From positions 47,356-111,355 of the forward strand of contig JBFMCV010000003.1 of assembly GCA_040754335.1 (NCBI GenBank): a DNA stretch of 64,000 nt, in the 5' to 3' direction. Both the position numbers and the translations under genes were made by a program. Position 1 is the first letter of the stretch. Each line of letters opens with the position of its first letter. Below are positions 28,453 through 52,225 of this stretch, piece by piece. The notes under the pieces were generated by a model, which was not told the DNA's origin, searched no databases, and worked only from the letters and a program-made list of their open reading frames with translations. The DNA comes from Thermodesulfobacteriota bacterium (lineage in GTDB: Bacteria; Desulfobacterota_D; UBA1144; Nemesobacterales; UBA2774).

Positions 28453-28538
28453 TGGCGGAGGGCGAGGGATTCGAACCCCCAAGTCCTTGCGGACGCCGGT
28501 TTTCAAGACCGGTGCATTAGCCGTTCTGCCAGCCCTCC
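28453..28538 (-). tRNA. tRNA-Ser (anticodon UGA), type II with long variable arm, CCA encoded
   Basis: Reverse complement: GGAGGGCTGGCAGAACGGCTAATGCACCGGTCTTGAAAACCGGCGTCCGCAAGGACTTGGGGGTTCGAATCCCTCGCCCTCCGCCA. 7-bp acceptor stem, G73 discriminator, anticodon stem CCGGT/ACCGG with loop CTTGAAA, T-loop GGTTCGAATCC. Confidence 0.85.
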
Positions 28539-46753: not shown

Positions 46754-48088
46754 ATGTTTGAAGGAATATCTGAAAAATTAAATTCCACTCTTAAGCGGGT
46801 AAGGGGCTACGGGAAGCTGAGCGAGAGTAATGTTCAGGACGCTCTCCGGGAGGTGCGTCTCAGCCTCCTCGAAGCCGATGTGAATTTCAAGGTGGTAAGG
46901 GAATTCGTCGAGTCCGTCAAGAGCCGCTCCTTGGGCCAGGAAGTGATGGGGAGCCTTTCGCCGGGCCAGCAGTTCGTAAAGATCGTGCACGAGGAGCTTA
47001 TAAAAGTTCTCGGCGATGAGAGCTCGGAGCTCGATCTCAAGTCATCGCCCCCCGTCGCGATAATGCTCGTGGGGCTTCAGGGGTCGGGAAAAACCACCTC
47101 CGCTTCGAAGCTCGCCAAGTACCTCAAGGAAACGCTGAAAAGGAACCCCTATCTCGTACCCGCAGACGTTTACAGGCCTGCGGCCATAGACCAGCTGAAG
47201 GTGCTCGCAAAGCAGGTAGGAGCGGGCATATACGATACGAAACCGGGCGAGGAGCCTTTGGAAATTTGCAAAAACGCACTGGGGGAAGCCAAGCTCGGAG
47301 GCTACGATACATTAATAATCGACACGGCGGGCAGGCTCCACATCGACGAAGAGCTCATGGATGAGCTCAAGACAATAAAACAAGAGCTTAACCCGCACCA
47401 GGTGCTCCTCGTCGCCGACGCGATGACGGGGCAGGATGCGGTGAACGTTTCATCGAGCTTCAACGAGGCGCTCGACATCGACGGCGTCGTGCTCACGAAG
47501 ATGGACGGTGACGCCAGGGGCGGCGCCGCGCTCTCGATAAAGTCGGTAACCGGAAAGCCCATCAAGTTCTTCGGCACGGGCGAGAAGCTGGAAGCGCTCG
47601 AGGTATTCCATCCGGACAGGATAGCGTCGCGCATACTGGGGATGGGTGACGTCCTTACTCTTATAGAAAAAGCCCAGGCTGCATTCGAAGACAAGCAAGC
47701 CGAAGAAATGGCGAGAAAGCTGCTGAAAAAACAGTTTTCCCTGGCCGATTTCAGGGACGCCATGCTCGCGATGCGAAAGCTCGGCTCTCTCGACAGCATG
47801 ACTCAGATGATCCCGGGCATGAAACAGATCGCGAATAACCCACGCGCACTGGACATGGCCGAAAAAGAGATAAAAAAAACGATCGCGATAGTAAACTCGA
47901 TGACCGAATCGGAAAGGTCCGATCATACCCTTTTAAACAGCAGCAGGCGGAAGAGGATCGCGCTCGGGAGCGGAACCAAGGTCGAAGATATTAACCGGAT
48001 GATAAAGAATTATATGCAGATGAAAAATATGATGAAGAATATGGGGAAAATGGGCAAAATTGCAAAAAGAATGATGAAATTTACGTAG
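46754..48088 (+). CDS. ffh: Signal recognition particle protein Ffh
   Basis: MFEGISEKLNSTLKR...; GLQGSGKTT; a C-terminal Met-rich M domain. Confidence 0.9.
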   Translation: MFEGISEKLNSTLKRVRGYGKLSESNVQDALREVRLSLLEADVNFKVVREFVESVKSRSLGQEVMGSLSPGQQFVKIVHEELIKVLGDESSELDLKSSPPVAIMLVGLQGSGKTTSASKLAKYLKETLKRNPYLVPADVYRPAAIDQLKVLAKQVGAGIYDTKPGEEPLEICKNALGEAKLGGYDTLIIDTAGRLHIDEELMDELKTIKQELNPHQVLLVADAMTGQDAVNVSSSFNEALDIDGVVLTKMDGDARGGAALSIKSVTGKPIKFFGTGEKLEALEVFHPDRIASRILGMGDVLTLIEKAQAAFEDKQAEEMARKLLKKQFSLADFRDAMLAMRKLGSLDSMTQMIPGMKQIANNPRALDMAEKEIKKTIAIVNSMTESERSDHTLLNSSRRKRIALGSGTKVEDINRMIKNYMQMKNMMKNMGKMGKIAKRMMKFT

Positions 48089-48147
48089 CTACTTAATATT
48101 TTGAGTGAATTTTATTACAATAGAGTATATAAGGAGGTAACAGTATT

Positions 48148-48381
48148 TTGGTTAAGATCAGGCTTATGAGGATCGGGTCGAAGAAAAACCCTTTCTACAG
48201 GATCGTGGCGACGGATTCGCGCTCACCTCGTGATGGTAAATTCCTTGAGATACTGGGTCATTACGATCCGCGAAAGAAACCCCATCATGTAGAGATAAAC
48301 ACGGACAGGGTCAGAGACTGGATAAGTAAAGGGGCGAAGCCGACCGTGAGGGTAGAAAAACTAATATCTGAGCTGAACTAG
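48148..48381 (+). CDS. rpsP: 30S ribosomal protein S16 (TTG start)
   Basis: VKIRLMRIGSKKNPFYRIVATDSR...; AAGGAGG upstream. Confidence 0.85.
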   Translation: MVKIRLMRIGSKKNPFYRIVATDSRSPRDGKFLEILGHYDPRKKPHHVEINTDRVRDWISKGAKPTVRVEKLISELN

Positions 48382-48447
48382 ATTGGAGACGGGAATGATA
48401 TCGGGATAGAAATCGCTTAACGGGTATCGTCATACAACGCAGGGGAG

Positions 48448-48696
48448 GTGCATGTTATGGAGAAGCTTAATGAGCTTGTGGCTTTCATTGCGAAATCTCT
48501 GGTTGATAGTCCTGAAAGGGTTGAGGTTCGTGAAGTAGCCGGGGAACAGACAGCTGTTCTCGAATTGAAGGTGGCGCCTGAAGATCTCGGGAAAATTATA
48601 GGGAAACAGGGCAAGACAGCTAAAGCTATAAGGACGATCCTCGGCGCCGCCGCTGCCAAAATGAAAAAAAGGGCGGTACTGGAAATCCTGGAATAA
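48448..48696 (+). CDS. KH-domain RNA-binding protein (YlqC-like)
   Basis: [21 protein letters not shown] motif. Conserved position between rpsP and rimM. Confidence 0.8.
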
Positions 48697-48715: not shown

Positions 48716-49231
48716 ATGGGGCTTATCTTATATGGCAAGATTACCAAAGCTCACGGTTTATCAGGGCGATTAAAGCTCTTGCCGTTCAGCCGTCAGATCG
48801 AAAGTCTCAATTCGATTGAGAGAATCTTCATAGAGACCGCCGGGGGTGAGGAGCCGGCCGGGTTCGGGCTCAAGGACTGGAGGTTCGACAAAGGCTCCGC
48901 GATCATCAGGCTCGAGGGTATAGACACGATCGATGATGCGGAGAAGCTTGCGGGGCGGAGCGTATACATCGACAGGTCGGAGCTGCCGGGGCTCGAGGAA
49001 GGCGAGTTCTACTGGTTCGAGCTCATAGGGCTCGAAACCTATACCGAAGACGGACGATATGTGGGAAGGGTCGAGAATTTGATAGACAGGGCCCTCCAGA
49101 GCGTCCTCGTCGTCAAAGACGGCCGGAAAGAAGCGCTCATACCGCTTTCTGAACCCATAATCAAGGAAATAAACCTGAAGGAATCGAAAATAATAATCTC
49201 CCCTGTAGAAGGATTACTCGCGGGGGAGTGA
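48716..49231 (+). CDS. rimM: Ribosome maturation factor RimM
   Basis: GKITKAHGLSGRLKL...PRC barrel. Conserved gene order. Confidence 0.85.
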   Translation: MGLILYGKITKAHGLSGRLKLLPFSRQIESLNSIERIFIETAGGEEPAGFGLKDWRFDKGSAIIRLEGIDTIDDAEKLAGRSVYIDRSELPGLEEGEFYWFELIGLETYTEDGRYVGRVENLIDRALQSVLVVKDGRKEALIPLSEPIIKEINLKESKIIISPVEGLLAGE

Positions 49232-49261: not shown

Positions 49262-50560
49262 ATGAAATTCGACATTCTTACAATATTCCCGGAATTCTTC
49301 GAATCCCCTTTTTCCCTGGGACTTTTTCAAAAGGCGAGGGAGAGGAATATAGTCGAGCTCAATGCGCACGACATCAGGGATTATACGGAGGACAAGCACA
49401 GGACCGTCGACGACGCGCCATACGGAGGCGGAGGCGGAATGCTCATGAAACCCGGACCTATAGGCCGTGCGATAGAGCGCATAAAGAACGCGGACTCGAA
49501 TTCTCTCGTTATAATGACGACGCCAGGCGGCGAGATATTCTCCGACGAGACCGCGCGCGAGCTCTCGGGCTACGATCAGCTCGTCATCGTTTGCGGGAGA
49601 TACGAGGGTATCGATGAAAGGGTAAGGGAGCTGTACGTCGACAGGGAGATTTCGATAGGAGATTACGTCCTTTCAGGCGGGGAGCATGCGGCGGCCGTGA
49701 TCGTGGACAGCGTTTCGAGATTCATTCCCGGGTTCCTCGGGAACGTACAGTCGCCGGAAAGCGACTCGTTTAAGGAATGGCTCCTTGAATACCCCCAGTA
49801 CACGAGGCCCGAGGATTATATGGGCCGCAAGGTTCCTGACGTGCTCCTCTCGGGCAACCACCAGGAAATCGGGGAGTGGAGGAGAAAGGAAAGCATAAAG
49901 AGGACTTACCTCGGGAGACCCGAGCTCCTCGACAGGGCGAGGCTGACACTCCACGATATAAGTACCATCAACGATTTGAAAAAGACCGAACGCCCCAATT
50001 TTAAAGCGTATATTGCATTAGTGCATTATCCCGTATACAATAATCGGCTCGCGATCATAACCACGGCGTTCACGAACCTGGACGTCCACGACATTTCCAG
50101 GGCAGGTAAAACTTACGGGATCGAGAAATTTTATCTCGTTCAGCCCAACAGCGAGCAGCAGAAGCTGGTCGAGCGGGTGATCAGGCACTGGACAGAGGGC
50201 GAGGGGCCCGGGCTCAACAGGTCGAGGACGGAAGCGCTCGAATTCGTGGCAGTGATGGACACGCTCGCGGACGCGGTAAAGGACATAGAGAAAGTCGAGG
50301 GCAGGATGCCTAAACTGGTCGTCACGGACGCACGCCCCCGGGACAATATGATTGGTTACGGCGAGCTCAGGGAAATTATGACTGAAAGCAACGATCCGTT
50401 TTTGCTTATATTCGGGACCGGCTGGGGACTCTCGGAGGAGATAATGGAAGCAGCCGATTACACGCTCAAGCCCGTCAGCGGATATACCGGGTATAACCAC
50501 CTTTCCGTGAGATCGGCCGCGGCAATCATCCTCGACAGGCTATTTTCATGTACAATATGA
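49262..50560 (+). CDS. trmD: tRNA (guanine37-N1)-methyltransferase TrmD fused to a ~190-aa C-terminal domain with SpoU/TrmH-like SPOUT motifs
   Basis: First ~240 aa are canonical TrmD (MKFDILTIFPEFF..., GGGGM, VIVCGRYEGIDER). The C-terminal extension has LIFGTGWGLSEE and LSVRSAAAIILDRL, which resemble SPOUT motifs II and III. Confidence 0.75.
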   Translation: MKFDILTIFPEFFESPFSLGLFQKARERNIVELNAHDIRDYTEDKHRTVDDAPYGGGGGMLMKPGPIGRAIERIKNADSNSLVIMTTPGGEIFSDETARELSGYDQLVIVCGRYEGIDERVRELYVDREISIGDYVLSGGEHAAAVIVDSVSRFIPGFLGNVQSPESDSFKEWLLEYPQYTRPEDYMGRKVPDVLLSGNHQEIGEWRRKESIKRTYLGRPELLDRARLTLHDISTINDLKKTERPNFKAYIALVHYPVYNNRLAIITTAFTNLDVHDISRAGKTYGIEKFYLVQPNSEQQKLVERVIRHWTEGEGPGLNRSRTEALEFVAVMDTLADAVKDIEKVEGRMPKLVVTDARPRDNMIGYGELREIMTESNDPFLLIFGTGWGLSEEIMEAADYTLKPVSGYTGYNHLSVRSAAAIILDRLFSCTI

Positions 50561-50575
50561 GACAGGAGAAGTAAG

Positions 50576-51025
50576 ATGAACGTAATAATTGAACTCGAAA
50601 AATCCATGATGAGGTCGAACCTCCCGGACTTCCGCTCAGGCGACACAATCGCTGTACACTATAAAATCAAAGAGGGCGACAGAGAAAGGATACAGATATT
50701 CGAAGGCGTCGTCATAGCCAAAAAGGGCGGAGGCGTCCGCGAGACCTTCATAGTGAGAAAGGTTTCATACGGGGTCGGAGTAGAGAGGATATTCCCGCTT
50801 CATTCGCCGCTCATCGACAAGATAGAGGTCAAGAAGAAGGGCAAGGTAAGGAAGGCCAAGCTCTACTACCTGAGGGGGCGCTCCAAGAAAGCGAGCAGGA
50901 TCAAGGAAAGATCGAGATACGAGCAGATGATTCAGGGGAACGGCGAGGCGCAGCCGCCTGCCGAAACCGGAGTCATGACCGAGTCCGAAACGGCCGCCGC
51001 TGAAAACAATACCCCAGCCGAGTAA
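50576..51025 (+). CDS. rplS: 50S ribosomal protein L19 with ~35-aa C-terminal extension
   Basis: [33 protein letters not shown]... Confidence 0.9.
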
Positions 51026-51118: not shown

Positions 51119-52225
51119 TCACTCAAGGTCTCTGAACTTAACCACTATACCGTCCTTAAAATCGAGCGTGAAGCACGTGTGCCAGTAACCGTCCTCGTCG
51201 AAGCAGTCGTAAGACCACCTCTCGACGCCCTTGACGTTTTCTTCCTTGTCCGGCTCGCCCATTGCCTGGAGCGCCTCGTCTTTGGTCATCCCGTAGGCGG
51301 GGTAATTATTCTTTATTCCCCACCTTATCCTCTTTAAAGCTTTCTCGTCCCTCACGACCTCGACGGTCTTCTCTTCGGTCACTTCGACTTCGTCCTTGAC
51401 GGAAGCCGTACCGCCGCTGTCGTCTATCGCGATCTTCTCCGTGACGTTCTCGGACTCGCAGCTCCATACCAACACGCCGTTGGCGATGGTCTCGGGGTTA
51501 TCGGGCATCACGGGCGTTATGTCTTTCACCGTTTCCTTTATATACACCCCCGCCCTTTCGTCCTTCGCGCTGATATATTGGAGCTTCCTGTCCTCGCATT
51601 GAGCGGGCGTCCAGTGCTGGAGCACGGTCGCCACGCCGGGGGTTTTTTCGCTGACGCGCTCAGCAAGCAGCTTTCCCGTCTCCTCACCTCCCGTATCCTT
51701 AACCGCCCTGACGTTGCCGACGAGAAGTACAACGGGCGTATCGCCGATCATGCCCGCGACCTGCTTTTCCATCCACGCGTCCCTCGTGACAGGCACCGAA
51801 GCCGGCGCATCGATAGCACGGACCGACAGACACTTTCCCGCCCTTATCTGTCCGCTCAGGTCGGCAAGCATCTGCCTGTAGGCAGCGCTGTCCACTATGT
51901 CGTTGATTTGAATTTGGGAAACTGGCGCCTGCCCCTTCATAATGCCGTCGAGCATCTCCTGCTGATCGGAAGTTATTTCGAGCCCCACTTTGAGGCACCC
52001 TCCCCCGTTCAAATATTCGGTTACGGTCCCGGCAAAAAACCGGGCGGATTCGGCCCGCCCGTAGGATTCCCCGATTATAAGCACCTGCTTGCTCCCCATG
52101 AGCAAAGGCAGCGAAATGTTATCCTGCTGCGCCTGAGAAGAGATAAGTGACCCGAAGTAAAGCAGCACAGCCGGAATCAAACCGTAAGTTACACGCATAA
52201 CGTCACCCGTATAAATATATTTCAC
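51119..52225 (-). CDS. Secreted hypothetical protein with C-terminal BamE/SmpA-OmlA-like domain
   Basis: Signal peptide. C-terminal YGMTKDEALQAMGEPD resembles the BamE-like fold motif. Confidence 0.4.
   Translation of the reverse strand: MKYIYTGDVMRVTYGLIPAVLLYFGSLISSQAQQDNISLPLLMGSKQVLIIGESYGRAESARFFAGTVTEYLNGGGCLKVGLEITSDQQEMLDGIMKGQAPVSQIQINDIVDSAAYRQMLADLSGQIRAGKCLSVRAIDAPASVPVTRDAWMEKQVAGMIGDTPVVLLVGNVRAVKDTGGEETGKLLAERVSEKTPGVATVLQHWTPAQCEDRKLQYISAKDERAGVYIKETVKDITPVMPDNPETIANGVLVWSCESENVTEKIAIDDSGGTASVKDEVEVTEEKTVEVVRDEKALKRIRWGIKNNYPAYGMTKDEALQAMGEPDKEENVKGVERWSYDCFDEDGYWHTCFTLDFKDGIVVKFRDLE

Follow-up and report, generated by a model that had tools for sequence, protein, structure and literature searches.

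A TrmD-Tm1570 fusion gene for a predicted doubly knotted SPOUT methyltransferase in a Thermodesulfobacteriota genome

We report on a gene contained in a 64,000-nucleotide stretch of contig JBFMCV010000003.1 (assembly GCA_040754335.1), from a Thermodesulfobacteriota bacterium; the whole stretch is called the window, and coordinates are positions within it. The gene, at 49262..50560 on the + strand, is one uninterrupted open reading frame (ORF) of 432 codons plus stop, starting with ATG and ending with TGA. Taking all evidence together, it is best explained, with a probability of about 0.9, as one true gene, whose product would be a doubly knotted SPOUT enzyme with two domains, built like the TrmD-Tm1570 proteins already known. 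The N-terminal TrmD domain would produce m1G37 in tRNA, while the C-terminal TM1570 domain would hold an S-adenosylmethionine (SAM) of its own in a trefoil knot and might carry out a TrmJ-like 2'-O-ribose methylation of RNA, probably of tRNA handled together with TrmD. By analogy with the fusion structure 8B1N, the enzyme may be a homodimer, in which the TrmD domains would pair in antiparallel and the Tm1570 domains in perpendicular orientation.

Domain composition

Judged by family models, residues 1-225 (49262..49936, +) constitute a complete TrmD, tRNA (guanine37-N1)-methyltransferase. Two NCBIfam equivalog models, which together span amino acids (aa) 1-225, score far above their cut-offs (NF000648, aa 1-223, 305.2 bits versus 220; TIGR00088, 296.4 bits versus 195), and the Pfam family PF01746, tRNA_m1G_MT, is found at aa 23-220 with E=1.7e-63. 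Across 38 fused homologues, T86-P88-G90, G112-R-Y-E115-G116, S131-G133-D134...G139-G140-E141, R153, D168 and S197-G-N-H200 are invariant or nearly so, and the three TrmD SAM-loops, TTPGGE, GRYEGID and SIGDYVLSGGE, are conserved. E115, R153 and D168 are the equivalents of the catalytic residues E116, R154 and D169 of E. coli TrmD, as listed in PMC1829167: the first two are invariant, while position 168 is D in 34 of the 38 proteins and E in the other 4. These catalytic and SAM-binding residues, along with the behavior of the Calditerrivibrio nitroreducens fusion described below, suggest that the domain methylates N1 of G37 in tRNA.

A reading made from the letters alone, hereafter the sequence-only reading, had noticed that the frame continues for about 190 aa past TrmD, and had proposed that the extension might be a fused second SPOUT RNA methyltransferase. 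The observation is confirmed, and the proposal is supported. The extension is made of an inter-domain linker (aa 226-248; 49937..50005, +), the least conserved segment of the protein, and of a 180-aa domain (aa 249-428; 50006..50545, +) belonging to the TM1570 family (PF09936 / COG4752). The Pfam model of this family, Methyltrn_RNA_4, matches over positions 2-181 of its 182, with E=1e-74 and 250.8 bits (gathering score 22.6), which exceeds chance by far. The C-terminal 188 aa also match 3dcm_X, the T. maritima TM1570 structure deposited as 'Uncharacterized protein TM_1570' (E=1.8e-52), and 8ri0.

Three motifs characterize the domain. Motif 1, NLDVHDISR (aa 272-280; 50075..50101, +), contains the putative catalytic Arg280, whose counterpart, in a profile alignment, is the Arg in motif 1 of TrmJ from S. 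acidocaldarius, 4cnf. Motif 2, LIFGTGWGLSEE (aa 382-393; 50405..50440, +), corresponds to the knot/SAM loop, and motif 3, LSVRSAAAIILDRL (aa 414-427; 50501..50542, +), to the C-terminal knot helix. The last two had been quoted in the sequence-only reading as resembling SPOUT knot motifs; both are present, and alignment with the SAM-bound crystal structures 3DCM and 8B1N, where they pair with GTGWGL and NHLSVR(S/A)AAAII, identifies them as the knot-forming motifs 2 and 3.

Conservation was evaluated by aligning the window domain with 21 stand-alone proteins of the family, at 46-54% identity. In these 22 diverse members 35 columns are invariant, and the window protein has all 35 residues, R280 and S415/S418 among them. 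They fall in the blocks H-Y-P-V, N-L-D-x-H-D-x-x-R, H-W-x-x-G-x-G-x-x-Y-N-x-x-R-x-x-A, T-x-A, G-T-x-W-G and N-H-L-S-V-R-S-A...D-R: invariant are N, D, H, D and R of motif 1, the G-T-x-W-G of motif 2, which pairs with GTGWG in both 3DCM and 8B1N, and the NHLSVRSA...DR of motif 3. The Gly of motif 2 is a reported SAM contact in 8B1N (bioRxiv 10.1101/2023.03.13.532328). The conserved Ser of motif 3 has been placed by Tkaczuk et al. two residues C-terminal of the position of the TrmH catalytic Ser and, together with the conserved Arg of motif 1, regarded as the putative active site (PMC1829167). When the SAM contacts on the Tm1570 side of 8B1N are mapped by sequence alignment, with an inferred 3-residue tag offset, they fall on the TxA, GTGWG(L/F), LKP(V/I) and NHL motifs and on the last helix, all conserved in the window protein. 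Since SAM sits in the Tm1570 knot of both 3DCM and 8B1N, homology to these structures suggests that the window domain likewise binds its own SAM in the trefoil knot.

Structural comparison leads to the same family. Residues 2-427 of the protein align with residues 6-427 of PDB entry 8b1n_A, with E=2.6e-130 and 45% identity. An AlphaFold2 monomer model, built from the 38 fused homologues (mean predicted local distance difference test score, pLDDT, 77), finds its best Foldseek match in the PDB in the same entry, 8B1N (E=1.2e-44, 45% identity), and its C-terminal domain superposes on 3DCM with a template modeling (TM) score of 0.87 and a root mean square deviation of 3.3 A over 182 columns, at 46% identity. 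The SPOUT fold expected for the extension is therefore found both by profile and by structure prediction. The global TM score of the monomer model to 8B1N is low, 0.40, because the orientation of the domains, which barely touch within the chain, is free in a monomer model. The 8B1N chain has indeed been described as 'open', each domain contacting its counterpart in the other subunit, with SAM present in both domains (bioRxiv 10.1101/2023.03.13.532328).

Authenticity of the fusion

A full-length protein search revealed more than 120 fused homologues, 429-449 aa in length and 61-89% identical to the window protein, all containing both Pfam domains; a search with the C-terminal domain only listed almost solely stand-alone or truncated proteins. 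The fused homologues are drawn from NCBI, JGI, ENA and Logan assemblies, and the named ones come from metagenome-assembled genomes (MAGs) of Candidatus Dadabacteria, in the NCBI taxonomy a class within Thermodesulfobacteriota, or of Thermodesulfobacteriota. One NCBI MAG protein, P0121, recorded as 'tRNA (guanosine(37)-N1)-methyltransferase TrmD [Thermodesulfobacteriota bacterium]', is identical to the window protein at 432/432 positions. The TrmD-Tm1570 architecture is already known, and this exact protein is already deposited, annotated only as 'TrmD'.

These data bear on the hypothesis, raised along with the sequence-only reading, that the long ORF results from an assembly or sequencing frameshift, which merged trmD with a distinct Tm1570 gene. 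Most other lineages do have two genes here, often overlapping by a few bases, so that a one-base error could merge them, and the closest GTDB relative, locus L001/L003, is called as two genes. However, the fused homologues, of about 433 aa, were obtained from independent NCBI, JGI, ENA and Logan assemblies, and all 13 loci of the Dadabacteria clade, L004-L016, are fused through an in-frame linker, as is the sister branch L026/L031. The linker is a translated sequence of conserved length, in frame and free of stop codons in 22 out of 22 fused GTDB loci. An erroneous merger may thus be considered practically negligible. The GC content is uniform along the gene (0.51-0.56), without a break at the domain junction.

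The two genes called in L001/L003 (CAVPJU010000003.1, L001:3337-4639; 83% aa identity, same synteny), of 171 aa and 212 aa, are separated by one extra base, located within the TrmD domain near aa 163, away from the junction. Downstream of it, the TrmD C-terminus, the linker and the Tm1570 domain share one frame, and both halves are constrained relative to the window sequence; this locus is therefore read as a fused gene in which the extra base is probably a long-read indel error, rather than as a true split or a pseudogene.

The sequence-only reading had also considered the extension as a duplicated, degenerate SPOUT domain, and this candidate was discarded. The two halves have no significant similarity (E=0.6), so the protein derives from the fusion of two different SPOUT families, not from a tandem duplication; the second half is part of a family of its own, which also includes stand-alone proteins, and is conserved to about the same extent as TrmD. 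Mean pairwise identity among the 38 fused homologues is 69% for the Tm1570 domain versus 72% for TrmD, with 41% for the linker. The ratio of nonsynonymous to synonymous substitution rates (dN/dS), computed against the 83% relative, is 0.07 for the Tm1570 domain versus 0.04 for TrmD, both ratios being rough, with a dS of 1.3-2.4, near saturation; against relatives at 71% identity synonymous sites are saturated and dS is undefined. This pattern of substitution indicates that the Tm1570 domain is under purifying selection, and not degenerate.

Gene arrangement across species

One genome per GTDB species was scanned with two family-specific peptide patterns, and at least 597 species were found to encode a relative; the best 80 of these loci were classified by tblastn and stop-codon tracing. 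Because they are the loci most similar to the window, their fused fraction should not be extrapolated to the family as a whole. In 22 of the 80 the genes are fused, while in 54 they are separate, in the order rimM-trmD-Tm1570-rplS: the separate gene between trmD and rplS, whose presence in relatives had been suggested as a check of the sequence-only reading, is indeed carried by these 54. Of the remaining four loci, one has trmD downstream (Leptotrichia), one has no trmD within 3 kb, and two are truncated at a contig end. The ORFs of the 54 separate pairs mostly overlap or lie a few bases apart. When the two truncated loci are set aside, trmD closely precedes Tm1570, at no more than about 0.5 kb, in 76 of 78, two of which show a gap of 300-500 nt. 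Nearly all of the 80 loci have rimM upstream of trmD, and the order trmD-(Tm1570)-rplS is kept. Four arrangements, distant, adjacent, overlapping and fused, had been described by Perlinska et al. (PMC11187310), and the present survey reproduces and extends them.

A few loci depart from close adjacency. In two Fusobacteriota, a Leptotrichia MAG (L035) and a Sebaldella MAG (L063), trmD lies about 1 kb downstream or about 0.5 kb upstream of Tm1570; L040 features a 305-nt gap, and L071, from an uncultured bacterium, is the locus with no trmD within 3 kb. Uncoupled loci such as these (L035, L063, L071, L040) could serve as natural cases for asking whether Tm1570 operates without TrmD.

In a neighbor-joining tree of Tm1570 domains, computed without support values, fused genes are found in at least five separate clades: the Dadabacteria clade, which includes the window protein and consists of fused genes only; a Bacillota group (L020, L023, L062); Candidatus Formimonas (L070); Deferribacterales (L078, in the group including Calditerrivibrio); and Binatia (L046, L080). 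That several independent fusions occurred between otherwise adjacent, often overlapping genes is a reasonable inference from this distribution, not a demonstration. Within the Dadabacteria-like lineage the fusion is ancestral, and fixed throughout the clade.

Comparison with known systems

Fusions of COG0336 and COG4752 were first reported in 2007, for DVU0836, LI0220 and MldDRAFT_4740 (Tkaczuk et al., PMC1829167). According to this published description, these proteins, from 'deltaproteobacterial' lineages, share the two-SPOUT architecture of the window protein. PF01746-PF09936 is a recorded Pfam architecture, comprising 66 proteins (PMC11187310), and the TrmD-Tm1570 protein of C. nitroreducens, 8B1N, crystallised in 2022, was the first doubly knotted (3_1#3_1) protein (PMC11187310; bioRxiv 10.1101/2023.03.13.532328).

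The C. nitroreducens fusion (PMC11187310; da Silva et al. 2023 preprint) is closely similar to the window protein, with the same domain order, 433 versus 432 aa, 45% identity from end to end, and the same motifs both for TrmD catalysis and for the SAM knot of Tm1570. The two differ in origin, Deferribacterota versus a Dadabacteria-like Thermodesulfobacteriota MAG, and their linkers show no sequence conservation. In the same support-less tree, a large distance separates L078, the Deferribacterales fusion, from the Dadabacteria clade, which suggests that the two stem from independent fusion events.

With stand-alone TM1570 (T. maritima, 3DCM) and Aq_054-type proteins, the window C-terminal domain shares membership, over its full length, in PF09936/COG4752, as well as the gene position directly downstream of trmD (PMC11187310). 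In contrast to them, it is covalently joined to TrmD, instead of being encoded by a separate, overlapping or adjacent gene.

Predicted activity of the Tm1570 domain

Biochemical data are available for the C. nitroreducens enzyme, a homodimer whose methylation of tRNA-Leu(CAG) depends on G37 (PMC11187310). Without Tm1570, its TrmD domain still has 86 +/- 4% of the activity of the fusion, while the isolated Tm1570 domain, assayed on a tRNA-Leu transcript, gives 18 +/- 9% of the fusion signal, a value similar to the no-SAM control (PMC11187310).

A role of the TM1570 domain in 2'-O-methylation is a published prediction (PMC1829167, PMC11187310), and the closest outside family by profile is TrmJ (4cnf, E=1.7e-4). 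We put forward tentatively, as a prediction only and at slightly less than even odds, that the C-terminal domain of the window protein is a TrmJ-like 2'-O-ribose methyltransferase acting on tRNA. A number of observations weigh against this assignment, starting with the near-background signal of the isolated domain just mentioned. The window domain lies under the curated thresholds of both SpoU and TrmJ, scoring 19.0 bits with PF00588, SpoU_methylase (cut-off 29.7), and 23.5 bits with TIGR00050, TrmJ/YjtD (cut-off 167). Unlike TrmJ (COG0565; tRNA Cm32/Um32 2'-O-methyltransferase; 4CNF, 4CND, 4XBO), it is devoid of the TrmJ C-terminal extension, and features a helical insertion, HWxxGxGxxYNxxR, and a motif 1, NLDxHDxxR, which are both family-specific. 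These two invariants and a third, NHLSVRS, are absent from TrmH/TrmJ, and therefore a different chemistry or target is possible. Finally, a literature search for an assigned function of TM1570/COG4752/PF09936 found none, and no experimental 2'-O-methylation, and a February 2026 preprint still calls the function of TM1570 unclear. From sequence comparison, the domain is best placed in a satellite family related to the canonical SpoU/TrmH/TrmJ 2'-O-methyltransferases, rather than among their members.

The near-background methyl transfer of the isolated domain, and the activity which TrmD retains without it, would be expected if the C-terminal SPOUT domain were catalytically inactive, a structural, dimer-stabilising or tRNA-binding helper of TrmD. 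That assay, however, used one unmodified tRNA transcript only, and in 3DCM and 8B1N SAM is bound in the Tm1570 knot. The SAM-loop motifs and H255, N272, D274, H276, D277, R280, N319, R322, N412, H413, S415, R417 and S418 do not vary between phyla or among stand-alone proteins, and the dN/dS of the domain, as reported above, is 0.07. Moreover, stand-alone copies exist, at least one of them (L071) in a locus devoid of trmD within 3 kb. A mere helper is, all considered, quite improbable.

The domain might instead be an active methyltransferase working on a substrate other than tRNA, for example on rRNA during ribosome assembly, and be linked to TrmD only through a shared ribosome-biogenesis operon. 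In favor of this hypothesis, the gene is always accompanied by ribosomal and 16S-maturation genes, in the rpsP-khpA-rimM-trmD-rplS cluster, the literature contains no demonstrated tRNA activity of the Tm1570 domain (PMC11187310), and rRNA is the substrate of many minimal SPOUT enzymes, RlmH and RsmE among them (PMC1829167). We consider it unlikely, and assign to another chemistry the probability left over by ribose methylation of tRNA, a non-tRNA substrate and an inactive helper.

Looking beyond these hypotheses, TrmD and Tm1570 may form a hard-wired anticodon-loop circuit, in which Tm1570 would perform the second step by methylating a neighboring nucleotide in the tRNAs that TrmD handles, and would require m1G37, or a tRNA bound to TrmD, to do so; alternatively, NLDxHDxxR, HWxxGxGxxYNxxR and NHLSVRS may mark a non-ribose chemistry. 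This pair of ideas we regard as doubtful. A parallel for the circuit is offered by TrmL, which needs a modified position 37. Such a circuit would explain the near-universal adjacency or overlap of the two genes, their at least five independent fusions, and the near inactivity of the isolated domain on an unmodified transcript.

Genomic context

The fusion gene lies in a cluster with the order ffh-rpsP-khpA-rimM-trmD-rplS. Upstream are ffh (46754-48088), rpsP (48148-48381), khpA (48448-48696), encoding a KhpA-type KH protein, and, directly preceding the fusion, rimM (48716..49231, +), whose product matches the RimM and PRC_RimM Pfam families. The rplS gene (50576..51025, +; PF01245, 9e-50) starts 15 nt past the fusion stop. 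The GC content falls to 0.41-0.44 at 47750-48500, a region covering the end of ffh, the ffh-rpsP spacer and rpsP, while it is 0.52-0.58 in the flanks.

The L19 protein encoded by rplS is 149 aa long, and the Pfam L19 model stops at aa 112; the last 37 aa or so form an acidic, low-complexity tail rich in Ala, Glu and Thr. Length is similar in relatives (149 aa in L001, 147 aa in L002). On the opposite strand, the region 51119-52225 (-) contains an ORF of 368 aa, hydrophobic and signal-like at its N terminus, for which no Pfam family was found at E<=0.01. Syntenic counterparts, likewise without a recorded Pfam match, are located directly downstream of rplS in L001 (359 aa) and L002 (368 aa).

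Rfam, at gathering thresholds, and ARAGORN found a single RNA gene in the 64 kb of the window, tRNA-Ser(TGA) at 28453-28538 (-); these scans revealed nothing bearing on the trmD fusion.

Conclusions

The architecture in itself adds nothing new, having been in Pfam since the family was built, described in 2007 and crystallised in 2022. Two modest additions are nonetheless offered by the present analysis: the fusion is fixed across the whole Dadabacteria-like lineage, and fusions of this gene pair, whose members are neighbors in 76 of the 78 uncut loci, appear to be polyphyletic. The repeated fusion of an almost universally adjacent pair supports, on comparative grounds, the idea that TrmD and the orphan methyltransferase TM1570 are functionally coupled.
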